Source of the DNA: a virus
Taxonomy: Duplodnaviria; Caudoviricetes
Reading direction: 5' to 3' (one strand)
IMG/VR virus record: IMGVR_UViG_3300032272_000007
Coordinates: 1 to 64,000 of that record
DNA length: 64,000 nt
Of this stretch, positions 3,089 to 30,630 are shown piece by piece (within the stretch, counting starts at the first letter, position 1; each line of letters begins with the position of its first letter). The position numbers and the translations under genes were made by a program. Below the pieces are notes generated by a model. It was not told where the DNA came from. It did not search any database and saw nothing but the letters and a program-made list of their open reading frames with translations.

Positions 3089-3406
3089 TTAAAATGCAGT
3101 CGTTGCGATTAGGTCGGGTGTTGAGTAATCCTCTAATACCCTTTCAAAGGAGCAAATAATCTTGTACCCGCATGAGTAATCATCTTCATTATAGGATTCG
3201 TCCTGATCCTCTTCATCTGGTTCTGAGTCTTCAATGTCTAGTAGATAGCTGGTTTTTAATTCAGCTTTCTTTAGCCTCCTGACTCGCTTACGATCTGTCG
3301 GATCAGAGCAAGTGGTACTCTCGTGGTGCTGTAAAGCCTCATCCTTGCTATTAGCAAGGACCCAATCCTTTTCGCCGTCAAAATCAAATTCGTAAATTGC
3401 TTTCAT
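3089..3406 (-). CDS. Hypothetical protein
   Basis: 105-aa ORF in the operon, natural composition. Confidence 0.7.
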   Translation of the reverse strand: MKAIYEFDFDGEKDWVLANSKDEALQHHESTTCSDPTDRKRVRRLKKAELKTSYLLDIEDSEPDEEDQDESYNEDDYSCGYKIICSFERVLEDYSTPDLIATTAF

Positions 3407-11864: not shown

Positions 11865-12475
11865 GTGCTAATTTTTAGTTTACTAATTTGATTCAAAACT
11901 ATATTCTTGTGGTATAATATCTCCTGAGCAGAGGGCTTTAAATACAATTCATCTGATTCAAACGGAATCCCAAATAATTTACTGTGATCGCTTCTACGAC
12001 CTAGCTCCTCTACAATCCAAATGGATCCAGCAGAGCAGCTTACAGTATGAATATCACTGTCACTCAGCTCCACTATTCCACCAATTGGCAAGACGTAATC
12101 GCTACAATTAATATATGTGTCACACACATATTCAAGGCCTTTTCCCTCTTCCAGTATTGAATAATAGTCGTATTCTGGCAGTAACACATTGCCTTGAAGT
12201 GGGGGGTACATCCTAGTGGCCATGTGATGATTGATAACACCACCAAGTGGTGTTAATCGTATTGGATACTTATGGTCATGAAGTTGAATATCAAATGGTT
12301 TTATCTCATTTGCTGAGATAAAAACTCTAATGAATTCTCCAGATTCTTCACCGACTACAATAAGAGAAAATAGCCCCTTGGCGTGGCAATTTTTAAGACT
12401 CCTCGCCAAACAGTCTCTATTTGGGGATTTAAGTTTGTTGGATACACAATCTAGGATGTCTTTTAGCTTACTCAT
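11861..12475 (-). CDS. Putative cupin-fold metalloprotein
   Basis: LHDH...IHTV His arrangement resembles cupin/dioxygenase metal sites; ATGA-coupled to the ACP. Confidence 0.45.
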   Translation of the reverse strand: MSKLKDILDCVSNKLKSPNRDCLARSLKNCHAKGLFSLIVVGEESGEFIRVFISANEIKPFDIQLHDHKYPIRLTPLGGVINHHMATRMYPPLQGNVLLPEYDYYSILEEGKGLEYVCDTYINCSDYVLPIGGIVELSDSDIHTVSCSAGSIWIVEELGRRSDHSKLFGIPFESDELYLKPSAQEILYHKNIVLNQISKLKIST

Positions 12476-13644
12476 GATGTTTGAAGTTTGATAATTTGAT
12501 TCTTTTCAGCCACTAACCGCTCGTTTGAGACGTGGCCATAGTATTTTTCAGTAGTGCTAACGGATTCATGACCAAGGAATTGGGACACAGCTGTTAGACT
12601 GTGCCCCCTTTCCAGCATTAACACAGCAAAACTGTGACGCAGGACATGAGGAGTCACCTTTCGGCCCACCAACTCACTAAGTGGTCCTTTACAGAAGGCG
12701 CTGAACCTAGCATATTCAGCCTCATGTTTGCTCACAATAATCTTCCCGTCTGGCTCGAGGAAATTTCCTACCGGTAACCAGTTATTGAATGTCTTCTTGA
12801 AATCCGCCGCTAAAATCAACTCAATGATTCTATTCAATTCAGGGTATACTATTACCCTCGCCTGTACCTGAGATTTATGCCTGTTGTACACTAGGAACTT
12901 GTTACCCTCCAGATCTATGGTAAACTCGGGCTCTGTGCAGCAGTCGGCAAATGAATAGCCTGAGTAGGCTAAGAATAGGGATAGCAGGCCGTAGTGCTCA
13001 TCGGCGTACTCCCAGAGCTTGGTAATTACTTTTGGATTGATAAATTCCATAATGTTCGATTTCTTCTTTACCTGGTAGATCTTCTTTGCTTTGAATGGGT
13101 TGAATCTAATACTGTCAGGCCACTCATCCAAAGGAAAATCTTCAATGACCGTTTCCACTACCATTTTGATGAAGTTGATGTAAATGGAAATAGTATCGTT
13201 GGCATATCCTGATCTATTCAGCCATCCACGGTAACCCTTAGCTAATGATGTCGACAACATGGCCAGAGGAATGTCTTCCTGCGCGCCTAGCCCACTCAAA
13301 TACCTTTGAAAGGCACTCTGACAGTGGCGATATGTGGTCTTGGTATGATTAGACAGTCCTTTCAGTTCATCGGTTGTTCTCACGTAGTATTCACAGGCCT
13401 GGGAGACCGTGTATGGTGCGCCCGTCTTAATAGAGGAGGATTTCATGAGTGAGAATGCCAACTCTGGTGATGATGGAGACCCTGTTTTAATGATCTCCTC
13501 CAGCTTGCGGGTATAGTCCTTAATTTCTTGGCTCCTCCTCCAGTCTCTTTTCTTAACTATTCCAGTGGACTTATCCTTGGTGGATCCGCAGATGGTTAGT
13601 CTGCAGTAGATGTATTTCTCACGTCTGATGAAGAAGGTGATCAT
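12472..13644 (-). CDS. Tyrosine recombinase/integrase, Bacteroidota (IntDOT-like) type
   Basis: TPHVLRHSFA, FLGHESVSTTEKYY; first catalytic Arg replaced (SGYSFAD) with RHK downstream; N-terminal arm/SAM-like domains. Confidence 0.92.
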   Translation of the reverse strand: MITFFIRREKYIYCRLTICGSTKDKSTGIVKKRDWRRSQEIKDYTRKLEEIIKTGSPSSPELAFSLMKSSSIKTGAPYTVSQACEYYVRTTDELKGLSNHTKTTYRHCQSAFQRYLSGLGAQEDIPLAMLSTSLAKGYRGWLNRSGYANDTISIYINFIKMVVETVIEDFPLDEWPDSIRFNPFKAKKIYQVKKKSNIMEFINPKVITKLWEYADEHYGLLSLFLAYSGYSFADCCTEPEFTIDLEGNKFLVYNRHKSQVQARVIVYPELNRIIELILAADFKKTFNNWLPVGNFLEPDGKIIVSKHEAEYARFSAFCKGPLSELVGRKVTPHVLRHSFAVLMLERGHSLTAVSQFLGHESVSTTEKYYGHVSNERLVAEKNQIIKLQTS

Positions 13645-13982
13645 TTCTTGTGTTTGTAAACTCCGTTTTCATCTGGCTCACCCCAGTCTCTCCCTTCATT
13701 AATCTCCATTTTGCTGAATGCGGCCTCTAGTAACTGGTTGGCAGTGATATTAATACGCCTCGCACTCCCAGTCAGCAGAATCAAACAGTCAGCATACTCT
13801 TCCAGAGCTATCTCTTTGTTCATATCACCAGCTGCAAGCTCAACAATTGTTTCATCCACCTCATCTTTCAAATGACACATAGGGGCTACTGGATCATTAC
13901 AATGCATAGGAAACACTCGTTTTGCAAAATCATAATTCCAGTCCATTAGGTTCTGGAGTGTTATCTCGTCTGGTCTATTCAT
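13641..13982 (-). CDS. DUF550/MazG-like dNTP pyrophosphohydrolase
   Basis: HLKDEVDE...EEYADCLILL...KMEINEGRDWGEP. Confidence 0.85.
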   Translation of the reverse strand: MNRPDEITLQNLMDWNYDFAKRVFPMHCNDPVAPMCHLKDEVDETIVELAAGDMNKEIALEEYADCLILLTGSARRINITANQLLEAAFSKMEINEGRDWGEPDENGVYKHKK

Positions 13983-14196
13983 TTCCTTGTTTTATGTTGA
14001 TTAATTCAATCACAGCACCCGCATCATACATTACTTCTTGATACATGCGCTCAGGGATTACCTCCAGTGTGTTGCTTCTTGGTGCTCCTCCAACCTGAAT
14101 AATTCTACAATTGGCCAATGTGGTGGCAACTTCCTCTTGACTAAGGCTGAATGTTGGGACAAATACGTACCTGAATTTTGGGGCTAGTGAGACCAT
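13975..14196 (-). CDS. Hypothetical protein
   Basis: 73-aa ORF preceded by the AACTTCAAAC leader and a -7 promoter. Confidence 0.7.
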   Translation of the reverse strand: MVSLAPKFRYVFVPTFSLSQEEVATTLANCRIIQVGGAPRSNTLEVIPERMYQEVMYDAGAVIELINIKQGNE

Positions 14197-14223
14197 AATG
14201 TTTGAAGTTGATAGCTAAATTAT

Positions 14224-14231
14224 CAAATATA
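14224..14231 (-). promoter_or_regulatory. Bacteroidota sigma70 -7 element TATATTTG
   Basis: TAnnTTTG in a divergent intergenic gap, with TTTG motifs upstream. Confidence 0.65.
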
Positions 14232-14279
14232 GTTCAATTTACAGGCAAACAAATCAAAATACTTTTAGTTTAGCCACAG

Positions 14280-14750
14280 ATGAAACCAGAAACCAAGCAT
14301 TTGAGCGCCCTCCTTATTAGCACCATGGGTAAAAGCATTAAGCATGTATCTGAAAAGTATTTGAAGAGGGAGTATGCGGCCTTTCACAGCCGTGTTAAGA
14401 AGGGAAAGATTCACGTCCTGGACTACATTAAGCTATCCATCTTAACTGGAAAATCTCTCGATGAGATCCTAATGCAGGATCCTAGATATGCTGATGACAT
14501 CAAGAAAATACGTGAGGAGTTTGGAATTCCTGAAACTGATGATGAGGCTGTAGATACTGAGCTGACCCCAGAGGCTCAGGATCTCATAAAGGATGTTCTT
14601 GGTCTTGGTGAGAAAAAGCCAAATTTATGTGACTCGGATGGCGCTCAAACTGCTGGAGACAACCTCCCCATCGCCCAAAAAGAGGAGGAAGCCCAAGAGG
14701 CAGGGGAAAAGGTGGAGATTAGTGATGACTTTCCTTTTGAGGATGTGTAG
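14280..14750 (+). CDS. Divergently oriented putative repressor (HTH-like N-terminus, acidic tail)
   Basis: Only plus-strand gene in the early block; 'KLSILTGKSLDEIL' resembles an XRE C-terminal helix pair. Confidence 0.5.
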   Translation: MKPETKHLSALLISTMGKSIKHVSEKYLKREYAAFHSRVKKGKIHVLDYIKLSILTGKSLDEILMQDPRYADDIKKIREEFGIPETDDEAVDTELTPEAQDLIKDVLGLGEKKPNLCDSDGAQTAGDNLPIAQKEEEAQEAGEKVEISDDFPFEDV

Positions 14751-14998
14751 TTGATATTTCTTTATATCTGACTTTTGTCCAACTTCCACACTTATGACAA
14801 ATAGCTTTGTATACTATTGGTAGAATATCTCCCTCATCGTTAGGATGACATTTATAGCAAAGTCGTACTGTCATTTTTCTGTTTTTTCTGTTGCGTGGTA
14901 CACTCCACATCCTTCCCAAACCTCTTCCCACCACCAGTTCTCTGGATCTGGGACGGTGATCAAACACACCTGGTCTTTGACGAATTCAAATGGCTGCT

Positions 14999-15283
14999 TC
15001 ATTCAAGGGTGAATTTATGTTTCTCAAAAATTGCTTTGGCTCTGTCTGAGTCAGACTTGGGGCCACACCTATAATTTCCGTCATGATCATAGAATCCACG
15101 CTTCAAGGCCAAAAGATCTCTCTCCTTATGGATTTCTATCCACCCTCCAGCGTATTCCCCCGGTCTCCGACACCTTTGGTTCGGCTGAGCCTGGCAGTGG
15201 GGACATTCTACCTCAAAAGGTGGATCCTGTGGGAACGTGTGTCCGCAGGATGAGCAGTCAATAGGTTCTCCAATTTTACCCAT
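14999..15283 (-). CDS. Zinc-finger protein
   Basis: CSSC, CPHC, C-x-x-P...H. Confidence 0.7.
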   Translation of the reverse strand: MGKIGEPIDCSSCGHTFPQDPPFEVECPHCQAQPNQRCRRPGEYAGGWIEIHKERDLLALKRGFYDHDGNYRCGPKSDSDRAKAIFEKHKFTLE

Positions 15284-15312
15284 CTATACCATTGATAATT
15301 TTTCTTTTTCCA

Positions 15313-17103
15313 TTATGCTGCTTTTTTAACATTCATAATCTCTTTCATCTTATCCATTCTGCAGGCCACCATCGCTTTCACCAGCTTAGGAGGCACCGAG
15401 TTACCAATGAATCGCTTCTGGTCCGTCTGTGTGCCTCTGAGCTTGTACCTTGAGCCGAATCCTTGGATGTTGAGCAGTTCAGGAACTCGTAACATCCTCA
15501 TCTTAACATCAGACAGCCCATGAAGAGCCATAAACAACTTGATCTTCTTGGTGTACTCGGAGTCATCTTCGTAGATGATGATGCCATATCCTTCGATAGA
15601 TGGCTCCGCCTCTACCAGAGATGGGGGAGCTTTGTCCATTCGGGCGATCAGCGTGAAGCACGGCTTATCCGCCTCGTTCCCCTTGCTTTTGTATTGAGGG
15701 TTGTACAGGAAGCACTTAGAATCTGAACTAAGTTGTTGCTTGTCTATAAATACGATAGACAGCCTGTCTTTTGTTGTCAATGTGTCGGCAGGCCTCTCTA
15801 TGTCGTGAGTTATCCCAGTACCATAGTACTTGCTTAAAAACACCACCGCATGGTGATCCTTGGTTGTGATAGCTCCAGTGGGATCTTCAATAGACTGGCT
15901 TTGATGGCCACCTGAGAAGTACTTGGATAGGAATACTATTGAATGATGATCCTTGGTCATCAGTGTGCCTATCGTCTTATCTAACTCATGTACTCCACCA
16001 TTGGAGTAATGCTCCATTAATAATTCCACCTGAGCCAGAGCTCCGCCACCAAATGAGGTAATTGATCCTAAAGGCTCATCAGTTCCTTTGACCTTACCGT
16101 TCGGTCGTCCAGAAAAGTACTTCATGATAAACTCAGGCTGAACAATAGCTAATCTATTCTGAGTGGTTATGGTTGGAGCTGCTCCGTCGAGGTCAACGGG
16201 ATTACTAACTCCTCCTCTTGTGTTGGAAAGATACTTGGAAATGAACTCGGGCTCTTTACCCTCACCTACATGCTTGATCAATCCAACGTACAGGCGCTCT
16301 AATGTGTTCTCGCTAAGATCTTTCTTCCTTCCAAATATGCTACGCCCCTTGTCTTCAAGGTTCAATGCTGGACGCACAGCCAACCACTTGCGTACCTTCT
16401 TACCAAACAGCCCGCCATTAGACTTAGATGGATCTTTGGCGTGGGTGGCCTCTGGCCAGGTATATGGTAGATATGGTTTCTTGAACTGCCCAAAGTATCG
16501 GACACGGCTAGTCCGTGCACCAAAATCAGCAGCGTTAAATATTCGATGATCATAGTCATATCCATAGTCATCACAGATGTGCTGCAGCCATCTCCTGTAA
16601 TCTCTACCATTCTTCTTAGACTCTGGGATCCAGTGGTACTCGTTGTTCTGTCTGAACTTGAGATCTGATCTGTCGACATGAGATTTCTCGCAAGCAATAC
16701 GGAGAGGTCCCCAGCTCATGAACTCTACTACATTTTCAATGTCAATGTAATCTGGATCAATGGCAGCTATGTACCTGTACAGATGTTCGGCCAACGTTCG
16801 GCTATCAGCGTCCCGGCTCTCGCCTCCCTTAGCTTTGCTGAAATGTGTGCACTCCAGGGATGCCCATAGGCAGATGATGGCATTTGGATCGTTCGCCCGT
16901 ATGTTACGCACCAACCGAGCAAGCTGTTCAACATTGAACGTCTTAATGTCTTCGGTGAAGTGGAGGACATTCTTGTGATTGTCGTAGTGGCTCTTGATTG
17001 CAATAGGATCGTGGTTAATGCAGGCTATCACTTTGCCGCCAGCTCTGGCTATGCCAGTGGTTACGCCGCCAGCCCCGCAAAATAGGTCAATGTAGTAGAT
17101 CAT
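15313..17103 (-). CDS. DNA (cytosine-5)-methyltransferase with tandem variable-region repeats
   Basis: IDLFCGAGG, WASLECTHFS, IENV, RTSRVRYF, IGNSVPP; about 6 internal 'P.gTiTTKD' repeats. Confidence 0.95.
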   Translation of the reverse strand: MIYYIDLFCGAGGVTTGIARAGGKVIACINHDPIAIKSHYDNHKNVLHFTEDIKTFNVEQLARLVRNIRANDPNAIICLWASLECTHFSKAKGGESRDADSRTLAEHLYRYIAAIDPDYIDIENVVEFMSWGPLRIACEKSHVDRSDLKFRQNNEYHWIPESKKNGRDYRRWLQHICDDYGYDYDHRIFNAADFGARTSRVRYFGQFKKPYLPYTWPEATHAKDPSKSNGGLFGKKVRKWLAVRPALNLEDKGRSIFGRKKDLSENTLERLYVGLIKHVGEGKEPEFISKYLSNTRGGVSNPVDLDGAAPTITTQNRLAIVQPEFIMKYFSGRPNGKVKGTDEPLGSITSFGGGALAQVELLMEHYSNGGVHELDKTIGTLMTKDHHSIVFLSKYFSGGHQSQSIEDPTGAITTKDHHAVVFLSKYYGTGITHDIERPADTLTTKDRLSIVFIDKQQLSSDSKCFLYNPQYKSKGNEADKPCFTLIARMDKAPPSLVEAEPSIEGYGIIIYEDDSEYTKKIKLFMALHGLSDVKMRMLRVPELLNIQGFGSRYKLRGTQTDQKRFIGNSVPPKLVKAMVACRMDKMKEIMNVKKAA

Positions 17104-17376
17104 TTATAGTTTTTTGTTACTGTACAAGTCAATAGGATTAGAGATGAAGTTATCAAACCATCTGGTTTCGAGATCATCTTTGTTAAGTACTAGAAAGGTT
17201 TGAGCTACAGCCGTATCTCCTGGTAGAACATCTGCATTACAGAAGTCACAGATATACACGCCTTCACATTCTCCTTTTACCAACATAACACGCTCATTCT
17301 CATATCTGTTTGGGTTGGGAAACCTCTCTTTTTTGGCATCATCACCACATTTTTCACACAGTAATTCACATTTCAT
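17104..17376 (-). CDS. Cys-rich hypothetical protein
   Basis: CEKC, CDFC. Confidence 0.7.
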   Translation of the reverse strand: MKCELLCEKCGDDAKKERFPNPNRYENERVMLVKGECEGVYICDFCNADVLPGDTAVAQTFLVLNKDDLETRWFDNFISNPIDLYSNKKL

Positions 17377-17379
17377 TGG

Positions 17380-17574
17380 TTATCTAATTTGGTTGAAGAA
17401 ATAGTACACAGCCGCCTTAGTAGGACCAGCCATGTTGTGGCCAGCCAACCATTGGCTAACCTTTGATGGCGAGGTGTTCACACCTTCCGCCAGAAGTTTG
17501 TTACTTACTCGCTTCTCATCCTGCATGGATCTAATCCACTCGGGGGTTACTAGGTCAAAGTCTATTGTATTCAT
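17380..17574 (-). CDS. XRE-family HTH protein
   Basis: SNKLLAEGVNTSPSKVSQWLAG. Confidence 0.75.
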   Translation of the reverse strand: MNTIDFDLVTPEWIRSMQDEKRVSNKLLAEGVNTSPSKVSQWLAGHNMAGPTKAAVYYFFNQIR

Positions 17575-17735
17575 TAGAATATTGTGAATTGTTCGTTAAA
17601 CATGATGTCAGATGTGTGAATTGTTCGGTAGTGGCCATTTCCCACACGGCATATAGCCCAGTTATCATTCCATTTGTGTATGAGATGAAATAGCTTCGTT
17701 ACTTTGTAGTTGCAGTAGTGTCTAGTCTTGTCCAT
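17574..17735 (-). CDS. 53-aa ORF (MDKTRHYCNY...)
   Basis: Starts in junction J2 with the same MDKT start as 2987..3079. Confidence 0.55.
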   Translation of the reverse strand: MDKTRHYCNYKVTKLFHLIHKWNDNWAICRVGNGHYRTIHTSDIMFNEQFTIF

Positions 17736-17738
17736 GTT

Positions 17739-18077
17739 CTATTGTTCTAGTAAGTCAGGGGCGACATATCCACAATTACGACAAATTCTCCTTGGAATTA
17801 TATCAATCTCATTATCTACAACAAATAGATGTTTTCCTGTTGAATCCTCTTTGCAATCTGCGTCTCTCATTGCTTCTTTGGGTTTAATTAATTCGCGGAA
17901 CCTTATCACCAACTCTCCTATTAAGAGGTCATAATCTTCGTCTGGTCTAGCTGGAATGTGCATAGTGGGAACTTGGTGTGATTCACTCTTATAAATCTCG
18001 TCCGTAATTTTATCCACCTTCTTAACCAGTTCTTCGTCTGAAAGTGTGCATTTTCTAAAAGTTGCTATTGTATTCAT
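17739..18077 (-). CDS. Hypothetical protein, an apparent in-frame fusion across junction J1, ending DLLEQ
   Basis: Internal ELIKPKEAMRD is J1 plus one extra C. Confidence 0.7.
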   Translation of the reverse strand: MNTIATFRKCTLSDEELVKKVDKITDEIYKSESHQVPTMHIPARPDEDYDLLIGELVIRFRELIKPKEAMRDADCKEDSTGKHLFVVDNEIDIIPRRICRNCGYVAPDLLEQ

Positions 18078-18316
18078 ATCTCTTCTTTTACTGTTTTATT
18101 GTAATCATCCTTGTGGTGGTGAAACACCTTAATTTCTTCGCCTGAGAGGAGATCCCAGAACTTAGAGTAGGACTTCTCTGGTTTAGGAGGGAAGGAGCTA
18201 CCCAGCGTGAGGAACGGACGACCCTTGACGTGTAACTCACCTATGGGGTGGTGCTTGACTACTTCAAAGTAATCTTCTCGGTTATGATCACTCATAATGA
18301 TCGAATTTGATTTCAA
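18074..18316 (-). CDS. Hypothetical protein
   Basis: Coupled ORF. Confidence 0.55.
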   Translation of the reverse strand: MKSNSIIMSDHNREDYFEVVKHHPIGELHVKGRPFLTLGSSFPPKPEKSYSKFWDLLSGEEIKVFHHHKDDYNKTVKEEI

Positions 18317-18584
18317 TTGTGTCGCCCTGCTTGTTGATGTACTTACCCCAGTTCACTGACGGGTCAAACTCGTACACTGAGTAATCTTTACCCTCATCAT
18401 CCGTGAACCATAATGTGTCAGAGGCATTCAAATAGTCTACATCTTGAAATATGACTGATTCCCCTAATTCAAAGCATTCACAAGGGCATGGTTCTGGTTT
18501 TGTTGGCGCCTTGATGGCTGAGTATATGACCATAGCTATAATTATTGCCAGGCACACTAGTAGAATTTTGATATTATCATTCAT
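18288..18584 (-). CDS. Membrane-anchored hypothetical protein
   Basis: N-terminal hydrophobic helix, then PEPCPCEC. Confidence 0.7.
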   Translation of the reverse strand: MNDNIKILLVCLAIIIAMVIYSAIKAPTKPEPCPCECFELGESVIFQDVDYLNASDTLWFTDDEGKDYSVYEFDPSVNWGKYINKQGDTIEIKFDHYE

Positions 18585-19327
18585 ATTTCTTGATTTACTA
18601 GTTTAGTTACATTTATCAAAGCCACGTTCTCTAAATGATTGTGACCTTTAATATGTTGAATCGTTTGTTGTAGAACATCACGATGGAACAGGTCAATGAG
18701 GGACTTGGAATCGTTATCGAATTTCCCTATTAATGGAACACCTTCTGAAAATAGTACCATATAAAGCTCATCATATTGTTCGTTAGATAGTAACTCTTTT
18801 AATCTCAATGTGTATGCCTCAACTTTATCAAATCCACCATTTTTATCAATCAGAATTTGTGCTCTTTTCTTCATCTCTTCCTTTTCATTACTATAATTAC
18901 TGTCATGAAATTCAGATAGGGCCTTTTCGAACCCGCTAATAGACTCTTTTGACCATTTTGATGCGTCCAACACATTGGTTATTGACTTGATGATTTTTTC
19001 AGCCTTTGTTGCAACTGATTTTCGAAGTTTATCAACCTCAGCCTCAACAAGTGTTTTTTTCTCCTCTTCTTGATAGTTAAGCTGATACCTAGCTCTGGCG
19101 ATCATACAGGTTTTAAGGTCAAATTTGATAAGACCTTTATCACCTTTCAGAAAACTACCATCAGATAGTTTCACCCAAAACTCTGATTCATTGGCTTTCA
19201 TTAGGGTTACGGGCTCATCTCCTGCTTGAATCTGAACCGGAGAGATAGCATAGTTGAATGAACTATTAATAAGGGCTGGAGTTAGCCCCTCATCTTGAAG
19301 TGCTTGGGATATTTTTTTGATTTCCAT
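18581..19327 (-). CDS. Hypothetical protein
   Basis: 248-aa helical ORF. Confidence 0.75.
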   Translation of the reverse strand: MEIKKISQALQDEGLTPALINSSFNYAISPVQIQAGDEPVTLMKANESEFWVKLSDGSFLKGDKGLIKFDLKTCMIARARYQLNYQEEEKKTLVEAEVDKLRKSVATKAEKIIKSITNVLDASKWSKESISGFEKALSEFHDSNYSNEKEEMKKRAQILIDKNGGFDKVEAYTLRLKELLSNEQYDELYMVLFSEGVPLIGKFDNDSKSLIDLFHRDVLQQTIQHIKGHNHLENVALINVTKLVNQEI

Positions 19328-19328
19328 G

Positions 19329-19541
19329 TCAATAGGAGGTTAGAATGTCAGTCATTAATTTGATCTTCTTGGTATCGTAACCCACAAGTGCCGCCTGAGC
19401 TTTGTCAATGTTACACTCGATGCAAACGGAGGCTGAACGCTCTCCCCTTAGCCAGTACGGCATAATCTCGGTGGTCGCCTGATCTATGGCATTCTGGAGG
19501 CTCTCCTTGAGAACCTCCAGTGCTGATTTGTTCCTAGGCAT
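19329..19541 (-). CDS. Hypothetical protein
   Basis: Coupled ORF. Confidence 0.55.
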   Translation of the reverse strand: MPRNKSALEVLKESLQNAIDQATTEIMPYWLRGERSASVCIECNIDKAQAALVGYDTKKIKLMTDILTSY

Positions 19542-20283
19542 CTGTAATCACCCTAAATTCAACAACCCACACCCAAGGATTCTCGTCCCATGAGTCATTA
19601 CCGTTGATTGAGTCCCATAAGGATTGGAATGAAGTAGCAGGATTACTAAATGATGTCCAACCAGCATAATTTGTCCATGTGTCGGGGTGTCCTCCAGTTT
19701 TAATTCTCTCAATTCCTTCCCGTTTAGCGTCCTGCCGCGAGATCTCATTCAATCTTTCCACCCTACAATCAATTACATCCAACCTGAGCCTACATAAGTA
19801 CTTAGCCATGTGTATTGATGGCTTCCACTTAACCATATCCCAGTTCCAGTCTTTGGTGTCGAGCTTCATTCCGAGAGTCTGGCCATCGTAGTGATAAGCC
19901 TCCTCTGTGCCATAGGCGATAACCTCAGACTTTCCAAGAAAGTCAGTCACCATGTGACCTGCTTCCGCCCACTTCTCTCTAACCCATAGCGTGTCATCTG
20001 GACGAGCATACCAGTCTGGAAATGCTAGTCCAGCTCCAGCTCCAGTAGTGTGGAGCTGTTTCAATCCTTTACTAGATAATTTTCCAAGGTCTCCAGTAAA
20101 CTCTTCCAATGGCATTGGGAATGTATTGGGGATTGCCTCAGGCTGGGGCTTGATAAGCCTGCGTGTCTGAGTCTTTTGTCCTGAGAGGATAGCCTTGACC
20201 ATCTCAGGTTTGAATAGTATTGGCTTATCCACGTCTCGTGCGTCTGAGGAAATAGATAACCAATGCAGTAACAATGGCAACAA
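19534..20283 (-). CDS. ASCH/PUA-like phage protein
   Basis: PILFKPEMVKAILSGQKTQTRR, LWVRE, WKPSIHM, VERLNEIS, WDENPWVWVVEF. Confidence 0.85.
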   Translation of the reverse strand: MLPLLLHWLSISSDARDVDKPILFKPEMVKAILSGQKTQTRRLIKPQPEAIPNTFPMPLEEFTGDLGKLSSKGLKQLHTTGAGAGLAFPDWYARPDDTLWVREKWAEAGHMVTDFLGKSEVIAYGTEEAYHYDGQTLGMKLDTKDWNWDMVKWKPSIHMAKYLCRLRLDVIDCRVERLNEISRQDAKREGIERIKTGGHPDTWTNYAGWTSFSNPATSFQSLWDSINGNDSWDENPWVWVVEFRVITDA

Positions 20284-20303
20284 GACTCCACTTAAGTGCT
20301 TTC

Positions 20304-20504
20304 TTAGCTCTCATGATTGCCCTCCTTTCCGAATAGTATTACTTGATGGACTGTACCCTTGGCGAATAGCCCTGAATCTATTGTCTTGAGTTCTGATTTG
20401 TTTTTCCCTGTCTTGAGGCCATGAGGGCGCTCATTGTGGGATGTGACCAGAGCCCTATCTTCGGCGCTCATCTTGCTAGTACTTGTTTTCTTGAATAGTT
20501 CCAT
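20304..20504 (-). CDS. Hypothetical protein
   Basis: Preceded by two AACTTCAAAC leaders. Confidence 0.65.
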   Translation of the reverse strand: MELFKKTSTSKMSAEDRALVTSHNERPHGLKTGKNKSELKTIDSGLFAKGTVHQVILFGKEGNHES

Positions 20505-20534
20505 AATGTTTGAAGTTTAGTTTGAAGTTACGTA

Positions 20535-20554
20535 AAGTAAACTAAAGTTTACTT
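20535..20554. promoter_or_regulatory. Operator-like palindrome AAGTAAACT-aa-AGTTTACTT
   Basis: Perfect 9-bp inverted repeat; degenerate copy at 23454..23473 inside the main early promoter. Confidence 0.55.
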
Positions 20555-20772
20555 AAAATCCAAATAATGGGTATTGACTTTATCTGGAACCATCTTTTGG
20601 GCTTCCATTTAGACAAGTATCTTACTCGTACAGTGTTTTTGTCAATTTTCCTTATTACAATGGCCTCACGGATATGTGGGTAACAGAATGCCGGAATTGT
20701 ACGAAATGGAAATGGAAATATGATGTCTCCCTCTTTGTACATTCCAGCTGGACGATAAGTAATTACTTTCAT
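20542..20772 (-). CDS. Small protein, tandem paralog of 20769..21059
   Basis: MKVITY...EGDII...RWFQI...SIPIIWIL. Confidence 0.65.
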   Translation of the reverse strand: MKVITYRPAGMYKEGDIIFPFPFRTIPAFCYPHIREAIVIRKIDKNTVRVRYLSKWKPKRWFQIKSIPIIWILSKL

Positions 20773-21059
20773 ATTTCTGTTATGTTAAAGTTTACTTTTA
20801 GAATCCAAAGAATGGGTATTGAGCTCAATAGCATCATTATCAAAGCAATGATGAAAACGATCATTATCGGCCTGCTCCGCACCCAGTTGATTTGAAACCA
20901 TCGGGAGAGCCTCCACTTGGAGAGTTTCCATACCTTGAGGGTGCAATCATCAACAAATCCAGTGATTACGCCCTTTTGATCCTCCTTATTGAGTCGGTAC
21001 ATTATGATGATCTCCCCTTTATTCCATATTCCTACGGTTGTGTAGCTAATTACTCTCAT
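20769..21059 (-). CDS. Small membrane protein, tandem paralog
   Basis: MRVISY...KGEII...RWFQI...TM helix...SIPILWIL. Confidence 0.65.
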   Translation of the reverse strand: MRVISYTTVGIWNKGEIIIMYRLNKEDQKGVITGFVDDCTLKVWKLSKWRLSRWFQINWVRSRPIMIVFIIALIMMLLSSIPILWILKVNFNITEI

Positions 21060-21247
21060 ATTTCTGTGATGTAAAATTTTGTGACTGGCCACTGACTAGA
21101 ATAATGATCAGCACTCCATATCCTCATCGCTCTGAGTAGTGCCTGCCACTTGGTTGGTGCCTCCACCTGCAATACGGTGGATCTACCCTCTGACTCAACC
21201 TTAGACTCTGACTTGAGCTGAACCGTGTACTTTTTGTTTGTTTCCAT
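21056..21247 (-). CDS. Hypothetical protein
   Basis: METNKKY...FYITEI. Confidence 0.6.
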   Translation of the reverse strand: METNKKYTVQLKSESKVESEGRSTVLQVEAPTKWQALLRAMRIWSADHYSSQWPVTKFYITEI

Positions 21248-21347
21248 AGTGTTAAATTTAACCATTGATCAGGTTGTGGGTGCTTGTTTGAATATAATGC
21301 GTTCGTCTTAGTTAAGCCCTCCCCCAGAGAGGAGGAGGGACAATGAA

Positions 21348-21518
21348 TTAATGATTGAATGCTGCGTAATTGGATTGTCGCTTCTCATACGAGCAATAGG
21401 GCTTACCTGGCTTTACCTTGCCAGTGTGCTTTGACCTGCTTGCTGTTGAGTAACCAGTCCTTGCACAGGATCCTAGAGTGATGATGGCTATCAAAGCCAA
21501 AAAGATTGATCTTTTCAT
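21348..21518 (-). CDS. 56-aa lipoprotein
   Basis: MKRSIFLALIAIITLGS-C lipobox; AACTTCAAAC leader; not in the ORF track. Confidence 0.7.
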   Translation of the reverse strand: MKRSIFLALIAIITLGSCARTGYSTASRSKHTGKVKPGKPYCSYEKRQSNYAAFNH

Positions 21519-21561
21519 AATGTAACGTTTGAAGTTTGAAGTAAAAAAATGGTAGCCCTAC

Positions 21562-21768
21562 TTAGGCTACCGATTGAATCTTGTTGTCGAAGAAGATAGG
21601 AACGTCAATTGCTCTGACGGCCTCATTAAAATCATCCTCAGCTTTCTGCCATTTCTCAGCATTAGCTTGAGAAGGATCTGTCATGAACTGTTGTTCGAGA
21701 TCCTTCATGATTTGCTCCTTAATTTGGAGTTTGCCAGTGTTGGCTTCTATTTGAATTACTGTGTCCAT
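21562..21768 (-). CDS. Hypothetical protein (MDTVIQIE...)
   Basis: AACTTCAAAC leader; followed by hairpin GGTAGCC-CTACTTA-GGCTACC. Confidence 0.65.
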   Translation of the reverse strand: MDTVIQIEANTGKLQIKEQIMKDLEQQFMTDPSQANAEKWQKAEDDFNEAVRAIDVPIFFDNKIQSVA

Positions 21769-21845
21769 AATACTGCGTTTTGTTTGAAGTTGATTGTAAG
21801 ATACACAAACTTTACTAATAAGCAAATTAATGGTACTTTGAGCAT

Positions 21846-21880
21846 AAAAAAAGGACTCCCCACTTTTGGAGAGTCCCCTT
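21846..21880 (-). terminator. Intrinsic terminator after radC
   Basis: GGACTC/GAGTCC-based stem followed by a T7 run on the minus strand. Confidence 0.7.
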
Positions 21881-21933
21881 CATTAAGCACTAGCACCAGC
21901 CAGTCGGCTAGTTTCTTCTGAGAATGTATTGCA

Positions 21934-22386
21934 TTACAGTATCTTGTTTTCTTGTGAGTAGGAGAAGTAACCATCTCTAGTCAAAATTAAATGGTCAAGC
22001 AACTCTATGTCCAGCACTTTACCCGCATCTAGTATTTTTTGGGTCATCACATCATCTTGGTGACTGGATCTTAAATTGCCGCTCGGATGATTGTGCGCTA
22101 GAATTATATTGTGAGCATTCGACTTTAAAGCAGCCTGATAGATGATTTTAGCATCAACAACCGCAGCTGACGTTCCACCCTCGCAAACCTTCACAACTCC
22201 CAGAACGTCATTAGATCGGTTCATGAGTAATAAGTAGACAACTTCCCTGTACTCCATCTCCTGTTCGAAGAATGGTCGGAGTATTTTGACGGCTGATGAG
22301 CTATTTGTTATCCTAAGTCTGTCGGCGGCTTTAACCGTTGTTGAGTAGGTGACTTTCACCTCTGCAACCATTGATAAATCGGTCAT
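21934..22386 (-). CDS. radC: RadC-like JAB-domain protein
   Basis: E...AHNHPSGNLRSSHQD, ELLDHLIL. Confidence 0.92.
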   Translation of the reverse strand: MTDLSMVAEVKVTYSTTVKAADRLRITNSSSAVKILRPFFEQEMEYREVVYLLLMNRSNDVLGVVKVCEGGTSAAVVDAKIIYQAALKSNAHNIILAHNHPSGNLRSSHQDDVMTQKILDAGKVLDIELLDHLILTRDGYFSYSQENKIL

Positions 22387-22646
22387 TCCGCCTGAGCTGA
22401 TGGAACAACAGTGAATAGAAAGATGGACGGCTTATAGGGCTGGCCGTGTAGGTCGCTAACTCCTCTGAGTTGTGACGGCTGTACCTCAACCAGAACTGCC
22501 TTAGTTCCGTGTGATGAGAATTTGTTACACTCTCTTTTGGCATCACTGGTATTGAATATTGCAGCGCTGGATGCAATGTGCACTTTGTAGTCATCCCCAT
22601 TGTAGTGGATCGTTTCGGGTAAACTTGCTCGTTTGAAGGTTTTCAT
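22383..22646 (-). CDS. Hypothetical early protein
   Basis: AACTTCAAAC leader. Confidence 0.7.
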   Translation of the reverse strand: MKTFKRASLPETIHYNGDDYKVHIASSAAIFNTSDAKRECNKFSSHGTKAVLVEVQPSQLRGVSDLHGQPYKPSIFLFTVVPSAQAE

Positions 22647-22733
22647 AATTTGCTAGTGTTTGAAGTTTGAAAAAAAGGGGTCTCAGTCACCGTCATGGCT
22701 TTGCCGTCGTGGTCGAGGCACCCCTAAAAGTCT

Positions 22734-25929: not shown

Positions 25930-26112
25930 TCATTTTCCCGTCATTTTCTTCTTGAATTCCATCAGCTTGTCAACAGCATCCAGCTCCAGGCTTACTACTG
26001 GAGGGTTGTTGTGGTCATTTACCATTAATTCAATCGAAAACCCAGTAAAATGGGCGTATGCTCCGTCTCCAAGATGGACGGAGTTGGTTTCGTCTCTCAT
26101 TCTTCGAACCAA
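25930..26112 (-). CDS. Hypothetical protein
   Basis: HLGDGAYAHF motif typical of small phage proteins. Confidence 0.6.
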   Translation of the reverse strand: MVRRMRDETNSVHLGDGAYAHFTGFSIELMVNDHNNPPVVSLELDAVDKLMEFKKKMTGK

Positions 26113-26546
26113 GATACGTTATCAATAAATTCAACCGAACATCCTCCTGAAATACAATCAAGATCGATTGTGGCTATCTCCGTATAACCATCATTGGATC
26201 TTATGTAGGCATAAATGATAAGTTTCCCTGAATCGATCCCGTCAATATCAGCTGTTATGCTCGTGGATCCATCGGGTAGGATTCTTCCAGAAAGGGTTAC
26301 ATCACCGATTTCGTCAGGGGTATTCAATGCATCTGAAAATACTACTGCAGAAAACTGATTGCTGTACCTTTCTGATATATTGATCAGTCCAATACCGATC
26401 GCGGAATCAGAAGGTCCGGAATCTGGGGTGATCAACGCAATGTTGTATCCATAGATAGGACCAGGTAACTCAGGCCCATTGTCACAAGAAAAAAGAGTTG
26501 TGGCTAATAAAGCCAGTAGAAGTACTGTTGTTTTGAAAGATTTCAT
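26097..26546 (-). CDS. Lipoprotein
   Basis: MKSFKTTVLLLALLATTLFS-CD lipobox; beta-rich mature part. Confidence 0.8.
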   Translation of the reverse strand: MKSFKTTVLLLALLATTLFSCDNGPELPGPIYGYNIALITPDSGPSDSAIGIGLINISERYSNQFSAVVFSDALNTPDEIGDVTLSGRILPDGSTSITADIDGIDSGKLIIYAYIRSNDGYTEIATIDLDCISGGCSVEFIDNVSWFEE

Positions 26547-26581
26547 AATTTTATGTTTAAAGTTTATGAGGTTAAATATAG

Positions 26582-26613
26582 TTTGGTTTATTGATATAAT
26601 CAAATTATATTTG
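26582..26613 (+). promoter_or_regulatory. Promoter TTTG-N20-TATATTTG for tRNA-Met and the downstream RNA
   Basis: Consensus elements 16 nt upstream of the tRNA. Confidence 0.75.
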
Positions 26614-26629
26614 ATTTAAGTAAGTATAT

Positions 26630-26702
26630 AGCGCTGTAGAGCAGATGGTAGCTCGCTAGGCTCATAACCTAGAGGTCGCCGGTTCGAGTCCGGCTGGCGC
26701 TA
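26630..26702 (+). tRNA. tRNA with CAT anticodon (Met or Ile2)
   Basis: Cloverleaf: CTAGG-CTCATAA-CCTAG anticodon arm, GCCGG-TTCGAGT-CCGGC T arm; no encoded CCA. Confidence 0.93.
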
Positions 26703-26990
26703 CATAAACCAGAGAAGGGGGATGTAAGACGTGCACAGCATCCCCCGCAGAAATCAAAGGCGGAACGAACGCCAATGGGACAGCGGACATTGAATAACCA
26801 TTGGAACTGAGATTTCCTAGCCACCGAAAGGTGTTTAAGCCGACTGAATCAAATCAATTAGATGATATGCCCCTATCCGCTGGGGGGCTTTGTTGAGAGA
26901 TTCGAAGACAACCATTTGTAAGACAGGCCAGACGTAGAGCTGGTATCTCGATTAACAATAGAAAAGGGGCAGTATATCTGCCCCTTATTT
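26703..26990 (+). ncRNA. Candidate structured ncRNA
   Basis: ORF-free, multiple helices, GNRA loop, loop-loop complementarity, ends in a terminator. Confidence 0.55.
26964..26990 (+). terminator. Intrinsic (probably bidirectional) terminator
   Basis: AAGGGGCAG-TATAT-CTGCCCCTT. Confidence 0.8.
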
Positions 26991-27039
26991 CTTCCCAAAC
27001 TGGGTATTTACTTTCCGAACGACCTTTATTTTTTCATAG

Positions 27040-27399
27040 CTATTTCTGGTATGTTCCTTCTACATCTCGGCTTTTCCGATCAATCTGGCGCTGCAGTAGC
27101 CATTGTTGCGCCTCCTGGAGCTTAGTGATCACCAATGCACCTTCACGGCTAGGCACTAGTCCGTTTTTGTATTGAAGGTCATGGATCATTACAGCAAGTA
27201 GGTGCTCGTGTAGCGTTCCTTCACGTTTTTCTACCTCCTCCTCATTTACTTTGGATCCACGGACGAAATTTAGCCGTTGTTGCGCCGCTGGATCTTCCAC
27301 ATATTCAAGGCCTTTTCCATCCACTACTCTGTAGACTGGAAGTAAGTAAGACGTTCCTTCTTCGAGAATTTCGAAGTCATTTTTCAAATCGATTTCCAT
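27040..27399 (-). CDS. tad1: Tad1-family anti-Thoeris/anti-CBASS sponge homolog
   Basis: F.RG...G.....LL...L...SRE.A...T...EA..W...R..DR..R.V.GT pattern matches the Tad1 C-terminal hairpin as recalled from memory. Confidence 0.8.
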   Translation of the reverse strand: MEIDLKNDFEILEEGTSYLLPVYRVVDGKGLEYVEDPAAQQRLNFVRGSKVNEEEVEKREGTLHEHLLAVMIHDLQYKNGLVPSREGALVITKLQEAQQWLLQRQIDRKSRDVEGTYQK

Positions 27400-28527: not shown

Positions 28528-28549
28528 TTTTATAAATTTAGAGTGTTAG

Positions 28550-28622
28550 AGACGATAACAGGGCTCGAACCTGTGATCAATGTTTTGCAGACATTCGCCT
28601 TGACCAACTTGGCTATATCGTC
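28550..28622 (-). tRNA. tRNA-Cys(GCA)
   Basis: GACGATA/TATCGTC acceptor stem, AATGT-CTGCAAA-ACATT anticodon arm, TTCGA T loop. Confidence 0.93.
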
Positions 28623-28665: not shown

Positions 28666-29331
28666 CTAATCAGCAGAAAGTGATTTCACTACAGCTATGA
28701 ATAGATCATCTTTGTAGCGTTGTGATTCAGGGAGATCGGCGTAAGGAACGATGCACGGGTGCAATTTCTTCTCAGGATCTTTCTCCTCACCGTATTTCCA
28801 ACCTTCATCTACCTTATCCTTCATCCAGTTGTTGTGAAGTGAATCAGGCCCAGCTTTTGGGTTCTCCAAACGGAAAATTACACCCTTAACAGCGCTCTCT
28901 TTTTGCCAATCTGGTGCCTTTTCCCAAGTTAGCTGAGAATTGTCACCGATCGATTGGCAATAAGTTCTGTTGACTTCGTGGCAGGTTTCGGCGATCTTAG
29001 CAATGAAAGCGGCTTTTTTAGCCGCCAGGTGTTCTTTATCATCAGCTTTGCCCTTCTTTTCATCTTTATCGGCTGTAACTTTCGTATTACCAGCATCAAA
29101 AACATCTCCAGGAGACCATGACTGGTAACCATCTTCATAAACCACAAAGTATCCTCCAGCTATTGGATTATGCTTTTTGACATATAAATGAGAAACTGCG
29201 AACTTTTTACCCTTTGAGGGAGTGATAATTGCAGAACCGCCGGGTTTTAGCTTAACGGATTTGATTTTACAAGCACGAACCACCTTGTGGCTTCTGTACT
29301 CCTGTAATTTTGAAACATCTAATGGATCCAT
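28666..29331 (-). CDS. Two-domain protein: N-terminal YEDGYxSWSP (Tad2-like) domain plus C-terminal RyR domain
   Basis: GGYFVVYEDGYQSWSPGDVF; AETCHEVN...HNNWMKDKVDEGWKYG.EKDPEKKLHPCIVPYADLPESQRYKD. Confidence 0.8.
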   Translation of the reverse strand: MDPLDVSKLQEYRSHKVVRACKIKSVKLKPGGSAIITPSKGKKFAVSHLYVKKHNPIAGGYFVVYEDGYQSWSPGDVFDAGNTKVTADKDEKKGKADDKEHLAAKKAAFIAKIAETCHEVNRTYCQSIGDNSQLTWEKAPDWQKESAVKGVIFRLENPKAGPDSLHNNWMKDKVDEGWKYGEEKDPEKKLHPCIVPYADLPESQRYKDDLFIAVVKSLSAD

Positions 29332-29808: not shown

Positions 29809-30630
29809 ATGAAGTTCATCTATGACTATGCGGTCGTTAAATTCGACAAACTAATACGGAATGAATCCGAAGTATCTGGAGCAAACGGACAAAAAATACT
29901 TCTAGCAATGGCTAAGGAGATGGAGCGCTATGTGCACAATGAGGGAACGGTCGTAAGCGTTCCAGATAAACTATCTGATAGTAAAGTCTTTGCTTTCAAC
30001 AGGATGGGGCCTCCTTTATACTATCGATCCAGCCCACAGGAGGTAACATGGCTTGATGTTGTTCCAATGTCCATTAAGGCTGGGGATAAGGTGTATTGCC
30101 ATCATAATGCAGTAATGAATGCCCTAAAAGACTCCGAAGATGTAATACTCAAAGAGGAGTACAACAAAGAGCGGAAGGAAACAACTGTTTGGATCAAAGT
30201 GCTAATTACTGATATTTTCTGTGCGGAGCGGAAAGGAAAACTTTTCCCTAACGCTACTTGGACATTGGTTAAGCCTGATATGGAAACATGGGAGGATATA
30301 TTAGTTCCCATTCCTGAAATAGACCCACTAACTGGTCAGCAGAAGGTGGAACTAACCAAAAAAATGGATAAAGCTGGGATCATGCAGACTACTCCGGTAC
30401 CAAAATGGTTACCAAAGGAGAAGTGGATACAAACGAAACAGGCACCAGAAGCAAAATTTCTTAGAGGGTTCATTGAAGCTATTGGAGATCCGTTGATTGG
30501 AGATATTAAAGACCTTGAAAAAGGAGATCACATCATTTTTAGAAATTTCGTTGATTTTGAGGTTAGCATTGGTGGTGTTAAATATTATTTGATGAAACAG
30601 ATGAATATTAGAGGGGTTATTGAAAAATAA
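29809..30630 (+). CDS. Tandem GroES-like co-chaperonin
   Basis: Two Cpn10-like units: GTVVSVP...IKAGDKVY and GFIEAIG...LEKGDHIIF...YYLMKQMNIRGVI. Confidence 0.75.
   Translation: MKFIYDYAVVKFDKLIRNESEVSGANGQKILLAMAKEMERYVHNEGTVVSVPDKLSDSKVFAFNRMGPPLYYRSSPQEVTWLDVVPMSIKAGDKVYCHHNAVMNALKDSEDVILKEEYNKERKETTVWIKVLITDIFCAERKGKLFPNATWTLVKPDMETWEDILVPIPEIDPLTGQQKVELTKKMDKAGIMQTTPVPKWLPKEKWIQTKQAPEAKFLRGFIEAIGDPLIGDIKDLEKGDHIIFRNFVDFEVSIGGVKYYLMKQMNIRGVIEK

Follow-up and report, generated by a model that had tools for sequence, protein, structure and literature searches.

A putative tRNA-Met 3′ trailer RNA with a short conserved 5′ domain in two metagenomic phages

Introduction

Phage tRNA genes are increasingly viewed as counter-defence cargo, and the RNAs that ride on tRNA transcripts, such as T4 RNA C/D, 3′ETS-leuZ and the GOLLD and ROOL RNAs found near tRNAs, are poorly understood. 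Here we ask what kind of RNA, if any, follows a tRNA-Met gene in a phage record of IMG/VR that is 74.7 kb long and 93% complete (CheckV), the first 64 kb of which is the stretch of DNA analysed and is called the window below. The original prediction for this locus was that the tRNA-Met is co-transcribed with one ornate RNA of about 290 nt, which extends from the tRNA to a terminator at 26990 and is organised by a kissing interaction between the loop sequences CAGCGGA and UCCGCUG.

Genome setting of the locus

Judged from its large terminase (TerL), the phage is a distant relative of Flavobacteriia podophages: the protein shares 24-28% identity with its counterparts in podophages that infect Cellulophaga, Maribacter, Tenacibaculum and Flavobacterium, and nearer uncultured relatives, at 69-47% TerL identity, are found on metagenome contigs only. 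Note also that several TerL homologues of the phage group (P0013, P0035, P0037, P0040 and P0045) are about 1090 aa long and have Hom_end/LAGLIDADG domains, as has a gene of 1125 aa at L036:5583-8960, and these long homologues suggest intein-containing terminases. The tRNA and its trailer are flanked by two minus-strand genes, P0002 and P0001, and the features of the locus are as follows, where L035 is the partial homologue described below and p is the pair probability.

26097-26546, minus strand: P0002, a small protein with a lipoprotein-like signal peptide, read from its translation; the divergent neighbour
26582-26613, plus strand: Bacteroidota-type promoter, -33 TTTG (26582-85), 20-nt spacer, -7 TATATTTG (26606-13); direct reading
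26630-26703, plus strand: tRNA-Met, anticodon CAT; ARAGORN, and the Rfam tRNA model at 65.8 bits
26704-26808, plus strand: putative conserved 5′ trailer domain; L035 alignment, covariance-model match and fold z of -2.56
26717-26746, plus strand: hairpin P1, GGGGGAUG / CAUCCCCC, with a 14-nt loop; p 1.00
26759-26773, plus strand: hairpin P2, GGCG-GAACGAA-CGCC; p 0.95
26772-26804, plus strand: hairpin P3, CCAAUGG/CCAUUGG (26772-78/26798-804), with CAGCGGA (26781-87) in the loop; direct reading, p 0.08
26822-26833, plus strand: CACC-GAAA-GGUG hairpin with a GNRA loop; direct reading
26869-26895, plus strand: internal terminator-like hairpin T1, GCCCCU-loop-GGGGGC followed by UUUGUUG; terminator scan (26869-88), p 0.92
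26896-26956, plus strand: apparent lineage-specific spacer between T1 and T2, which can form UUGUUGAGAGAU/AUCUCgaUUAACAA around CCAG/CUGG; fold z of -0.87, no L035 counterpart
26957-26993, both strands: bidirectional intrinsic terminator T2, AAUAGAAAAGGGGCAG-uauau-CUGCCCCUUAUUUCUU; hairpin 26964-86 called on both strands, p 0.98
27040-27399, minus strand: P0001, a Tad1-family (Thoeris anti-defence 1) protein with a weak Pfam match to Acb2_Tad1_hairpin; the convergent neighbour

For P0001 we found 272 homologues, and a family profile of 30 sequences matches the solved Tad1 structures (8kbh, 8kbg, 7uav and others) with an E of 3e-8 over residues 29-115. P0002 has no match in Pfam or PHROGs. Just upstream of its start codon, at 26555 on the minus strand, lies AACTTTAAAC, a one-mismatch copy of the early-gene leader AACTTCAAAC, which has seven exact minus-strand copies from 12479 to 22658 and the box of which is also present in the relatives L035 and L029. 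An anti-leader small RNA directed against this recurrent leader, the only target tried, was rejected, the best complement in the RNA being 6/10.

It is noted that the minus-strand operon also contains a tRNA-Cys (28549-28622), which is located between a gene for an RyR-domain protein (28666-29331, minus strand; Pfam RyR, E 5.5e-13) and the small ORFs extending towards the Tad1 gene, and that the gene order RyR-MerR-Tad1 is preserved in L029 and L035. A 273-aa protein encoded just upstream of the packaging genes (29809-30630, plus strand) has a Cpn10 (GroES-like) C-terminal domain and is present in every relative fetched (L029, L032-L035). A tyrosine-integrase-like gene at 12472-13644 on the minus strand (PHROG 1, E 2.8e-27) suggests a temperate lifestyle; because it is 13 kb away, the tRNA-Met is not an obvious attachment site, and an integration scar with a repeated tRNA end was rejected since no direct repeat of the tRNA end is present.

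Transcription unit of the tRNA-Met

The promoter read upstream of the tRNA-Met ends 16 nt before the tRNA starts, and full matches to this Bacteroidota pattern number three in the 64-kb window versus 1.9 expected by chance, while a sigma-70 promoter scan gave no plus-strand promoter upstream of the tRNA-Met. The tRNA gene does not encode CCA, its discriminator A being followed by CAT. No ORF of at least 60 aa lies within 26704-27039, where there are only mechanical ORFs of 31-51 aa, and the non-coding stretch after the tRNA is thus 336 nt at most. A hidden protein gene, or a relic of the genes that follow the trailer in L035, was rejected likewise, as comparison gave no trace of one. At the far end of the stretch, the inverted repeat of T2 has 16 nt per arm, with an A-tract before it and a U-tract after it, and T2 is, as read from its sequence and position, common to the tRNA unit on the plus strand and the convergent Tad1 operon on the minus strand.

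The setting described in the original prediction is therefore borne out: the promoter upstream of the tRNA exists in a Bacteroidota-type form, the stretch up to the strong terminator contains no ORF of appreciable length, and the terminator hairpin was confirmed by the terminator scan. Co-transcription with the tRNA-Met is very probable from the arrangement, in which the non-coding region lies on the same strand between the tRNA 3′ end and the terminators.

Folding of the 290-nt region

The fold of the 292-nt region has a z-score of -3.69. After removal of the terminal terminator the z-score becomes -1.68, with 12 of 200 shuffles as good, and thus the value for the whole region is carried mostly by that terminator. 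By segment, the z-scores are -2.56 for the 5′ 109 nt, -0.32 for the middle 84 nt (26812-26895) and -0.87 for the 3′ 73 nt (26888-26960), implying that the middle and 3′ parts are without thermodynamic signal because their fold energies are like those of shuffled sequence. The 5′ 109 nt give -2.56 on the plus strand versus -1.31 on the minus strand, and an RNA from the minus strand was dismissed, the whole-region z-score there being -1.39. Perfect inverted repeats of at least 7 nt number four in the region versus 1.5 in shuffles (P 0.11).

All helices named in the original prediction are present in the sequence at the positions given for them, but they differ greatly in how probably they form in the Boltzmann ensemble of the full transcript. 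The helix GGGGGATG/CATCCCCC at 26717-24/26739-46 is P1 and has a pair probability of 1.00, and the pairing GAGAT/ATCTC (26897-901/26945-49) enclosing CCAG/CTGG (26928-31/26940-43) also stands, with pair probabilities of 0.67 and 0.99, respectively. By contrast, three other proposed helices hold as sequence but not as favoured structure. CCAATGG/CCATTGG, that is P3, has the low probability listed above and its place in L035 is taken by a differing hairpin; the GNRA hairpin folds in the isolated segment but has a probability of 0.12 in the full ensemble; and the stacking of CCCC/GGGG (around 26870-86) on AAGCC/GGCTT (26837-41/26886-90) overlooked a 28-nt one-sided bulge, with AAGCC/GGCUU having a probability of 0.01. 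The stable hairpin P2 was absent from the list of proposed helices; two of its nucleotides are shared with the 5′ arm of the CCAATGG helix, and its counterpart in L035 is only weak. Moreover, beyond P1 the helices P0 and P3 and an alternative GAAAUC/GAUUUC helix compete, with covariation in none of them.

The proposed kissing loop

The two heptamers CAGCGGA (26781-87) and TCCGCTG (26876-82) are exact complements, with a duplex energy of -11.1 kcal/mol, and the 3′ heptamer is unpaired with a probability of 0.97, as the kissing-loop proposal would have it. The other data point in the opposite direction. A complement between the loops of two separate hairpins reaches at least 7 nt in 5% of shuffles and at least 6 nt in 26%. 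The last nucleotide of the second heptamer, G26882, may belong to the stem of T1, the loop of which holds UCCGCU(G). Alternative folds engage the 5′ heptamer in pairing most of the time, its probability of being unpaired being only about 20%, while the 3′ heptamer occupies the loop of a terminator-like hairpin at which most transcripts probably stop. In L035 the 3′ hairpin region that carries the kissing partner is missing and the equivalent 5′ hairpin has a 3-nt loop, and hence the loop-loop pair, for which covariation between homologues had been named as the check, is not kept there.

Taken together, the complementarity of the heptamers is real and the interaction built on it is not supported. 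The same applies to the larger claim of a single structured RNA of about 290 nt, for which the whole-region z-score and the presence of every listed helix speak, and against which stand the dependence of that z-score on the terminal terminator and the 3′ 190 nt that are unmatched in L035. The 290-nt kissing-loop architecture is not supported, and we regard it as a very improbable description of this RNA.

The homologue L035 and the conserved 5′ domain

The sole partial homologue found is on L035 (JGI 3300073486), a metagenomic phage contig of 18.5 kb, which shares with the phage, in the same order, the Tad1 protein (82% amino-acid identity), the RyR protein (52%) and a 174-aa protein (65%). 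Between the L035 genes for the Tad1 and 174-aa proteins lies a tRNA-Met that closely resembles that of the window and keeps its relative orientation; no other relative with the same tRNA was found. The trailer after this tRNA is 181 nt long, and two ORFs (116 and 126 aa) follow it on the same strand. At 165-185 nt from the tRNA, each of the two trailers ends with a GC-rich hairpin, which in L035 is CCCUC-GAUUUU-GAGGG.

Window positions 26706-26804 are colinear with positions 3-106 of the L035 trailer at 60% identity, whereas the upstream promoter region and the distal trailer gave no convincing alignment between the two, and window 26812-26960 has no counterpart in L035. In a tblastx comparison of the window trailer with L035 no conserved peptide was found (E 0.57 or worse). 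Within the colinear part, the blocks AAACCAKAGRAAGGGG and CCCCGMAGAAAU, which flank hairpin P1, are nearly invariant, and further along the domain come GAAC, UUGAnUnACCnUUGG and a possible closing helix CCA/UGG that is invariant in L035. P1 itself is differently composed in the two phages, its arms GGGGGAUG/CAUCCCCC in the window becoming GGGGAGCCAU/AUGGCUCCCC in L035: four of the ten pairs are changed on both sides and one on one side, with all cells paired, in an alignment fitted to a covariance model for which the L035 fold was the only input. An alignment of just two sequences gives covariation no statistical power, and the observed values were attained in 21 of 500 column shuffles. The remaining helices are either invariant or not alignable, and the P3 position is occupied in L035 by another hairpin, of 13 bp around a 3-nt loop, which has no aligned counterpart in the window. 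The L035-only covariance model has a single match in the window (128 kb over both strands), with 19.3 bits and an E of about 0.01, a value for which the calibration is rough. Judged by this comparison and by the segment energies, the likeness to a conserved folded RNA is confined to the first ~100 nt.

Wider searches

With Rfam 15, only the two tRNAs reach the gathering score in the 64-kb window, and at E up to 10 the region 26500-27200 gave terminator noise of at most 20 bits versus thresholds of 44-66; the L035 trailer likewise matched no family. This agrees with the earlier statement that no tmRNA, RNase P, group I intron or HDV-like motif is recognisable here, and the other ribozyme families of Rfam are likewise without a match. 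In a blastn search of 50,697 phage records, effective down to about 65-70% identity, query positions ~6-89 (the tRNA) were matched and the trailer never was. An IMG/VR scan with both kissing heptamers gave 27 matches, all of them by chance as judged by blastn; P0001 and TerL as single IMG/VR queries gave nothing, and a string from the tRNA D/anticodon arms had no match in IMG/VR.

Relatives of the phage were also inspected. The trailer was not matched by blastn, nhmmer or the covariance model in 80 IMG/VR loci with Tad1-like genes, and neither tRNA nor trailer is present in the closest TerL relatives (61-47% identity, L029-L034; 69%, L128) or in the Tad1 relatives L036, L037 and L124-127. As these closest TerL and Tad1 relatives retain the order Tad1-RyR-Cpn10-TerL and lack the tRNA and trailer, the element is dispensable for the phage group. 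The 174-aa protein has one homologue among 5.8 billion proteins, which is the one in L035, and homologues of the 116-aa protein of L035 have no tRNA or trailer upstream.

Pattern scans for the trailer in IMG/VR, JGI metagenomes and GTDB genomes gave one meaningful match, on an unrelated AT-rich contig (L038, SDBT01000954.1). There, at 3185-3278 on the minus strand, an initiator-type tRNA-Met is followed by the 16-nt motif AAACCATAGGAAGGGG; together with the preceding CTACA, 19 of 22 bases are the same, and the motif forms a small hairpin with a U-tract. The contig is otherwise dissimilar to the phage, and ARAGORN calls a permuted tmRNA about 700 nt downstream. Given its place right after a tRNA-Met, this match seems too specific for chance.

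Discussion

We propose that the stretch encodes a 3′ trailer RNA of the tRNA-Met with a conserved 5′ domain of about 100 nt, which probably ends at the internal terminator near 26895, the rest being spacer before the bidirectional terminator shared with the Tad1 operon. To this reading, which is drawn from sequence comparison and predicted folds, we assign a rough probability of 0.45. According to the model, transcription would start from the Bacteroidota-type promoter shortly upstream of the tRNA and would mostly stop at T1, with the read-through halted at T2 (26957-93). In a tRNA without encoded CCA, cutting of the 3′ end directly after the discriminator is the RNase Z route, and because no CCA is encoded here, the 3′ end of this tRNA is presumably cut in this way. 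Processing of this kind would release a trailer RNA some 190 nt long, which we infer to be stable. The functional part would be the first ~100 nt, with P1 placed between conserved purine-rich single-stranded blocks and followed by one or two hairpins, the whole domain possibly being closed by the short CCA/UGG helix. The domain would either stabilise and insulate the processed tRNA precursor, and so act in processing or stability, or be a small stable RNA of its own, like 3′ETS-leuZ or T4 RNA C/D; these are the roles that we favour. The remaining ~150 nt, including the loop with the kissing partner, would be lineage-specific spacer and terminator sequence. In the window the domain persists with no ORF behind it, and its role is therefore expected to be independent of a downstream gene.

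It may be argued that the trailer is a functionless transcribed spacer, a filler between the phage tRNA and its terminators in which the likeness to L035 is residual ancestry around a generic stabilising hairpin. This agrees with a fold that is no better than that of shuffles once the terminator is removed and with the poor z-scores of the middle and 3′ parts, with the finding of one partial homologue across IMG/VR, JGI metagenomes, GTDB genomes and INPHARED, and with the fact that close relatives manage without the trailer. Yet the two phages, whose other intergenic DNA is unalignable, share three short and almost unchanged blocks behind the tRNA, the P1 stem has been rebuilt by four double changes rather than decayed, and the 16-nt motif recurs after the unrelated tRNA-Met of L038, so that we consider this explanation unlikely, though by no means negligible. 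The L035 arrangement suggests another possibility, namely that the element is a cis-acting leader or insulator for downstream genes, with the ancestral layout kept in L035 and the window being a relic after gene loss: the L035 trailer runs directly into its two ORFs, with its hairpin 22 nt before the ATG, and the same position in the window has non-conserved sequence and terminators only. We regard this as improbable, because the conserved blocks and P1 have stayed intact in the window with no gene behind them; moreover, no trace of the L035 genes is left in the window, and homologues of the 116-aa protein do without an upstream tRNA or trailer.

A remnant of a second tRNA from a former tRNA cluster is what one would suppose from the string GTAGAGC-TGGTATCTCG at 26935-53 (plus strand), which is similar to the D-arm of the tRNA-Met next to it (P ~0.04 versus shuffles in a local alignment), and from the T-arm-like GGGGGTCGAATCCCG in the L035 trailer. 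The positions of these tRNA-like strings in the two trailers, however, differ and are not homologous, neither ARAGORN nor the Rfam tRNA model (E up to 10) finds a second tRNA in 26704-27000, and a cloverleaf is missing, as is a direct repeat of the tRNA end. We thus take a decayed tRNA to be the least probable of the explanations considered, while the D-arm-like string itself may be left over from a lost copy of the tRNA or may have arisen by chance. Finally, the ~100-nt domain might be a new phage regulatory or counter-defence RNA, acting as a decoy or sponge together with the Tad1-family and RyR-domain proteins or as a trailer signal specific to tRNA-Met. The latter idea is hinted at by L038, since AAACCATAGGAAGGGG is found there after an unrelated initiator-type tRNA-Met; even so, we hold a role of this kind to be more improbable still than the 290-nt architecture.

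Returning to the trailer with a conserved 5′ domain, we note that the element is new to Rfam and is a small, rare and probably tRNA-cotranscribed trailer RNA of two metagenomic phages, and that, being rare and small, it is a lead only. The main practical outcome is a negative one, in that work on this RNA should not build further on the 290-nt kissing-loop architecture. On the positive side, if a Bacteroidota-type phage does carry a conserved trailer domain next to its Tad1 and RyR anti-defence genes, this is one more tRNA-linked RNA to examine.

In comparison with known systems, T2 is an ordinary case and does not differ from other bidirectional intrinsic terminators between convergent genes. 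The GOLLD and ROOL RNAs are large and ornate and often lie near tRNAs and in prophages (PMC5737381; bioRxiv 10.1101/2024.12.08.627333), with lengths of about 580-800 nt, many multistem junctions and pseudoknots, and conservation across phyla (PMC5737381). The trailer resembles them in being tRNA-adjacent and phage-associated with a function that is not known, but it matches neither Rfam model at E 10, and has about 100 conserved nucleotides, no supported pseudoknot, a non-coding stretch of at most 336 nt and two metagenomic phages as its range, consistent with the earlier view that it does not obviously match these RNAs. T4 RNA C/D are likewise small phage RNAs with no known role in the same transcription unit as phage tRNAs; the trailer differs from them in having no blastn match among the phage records searched, and in belonging to a podophage relative of Flavobacteriia phages with a single tRNA rather than a cluster. 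In E. coli, 3′ETS-leuZ is the trailer of the glyW-cysT-leuZ tRNA operon and acts as a sponge of small RNAs (Lalaouna et al. 2015, as described in PMC8383071). The phage trailer has no sequence or Rfam relation to it, and it is phage-encoded, in a Bacteroidota-type setting, longer, and equipped with a multi-hairpin 5′ domain. What the two have in common is the layout of a non-coding RNA between the last tRNA of a transcript and the terminator, an RNA that tRNA processing would release.
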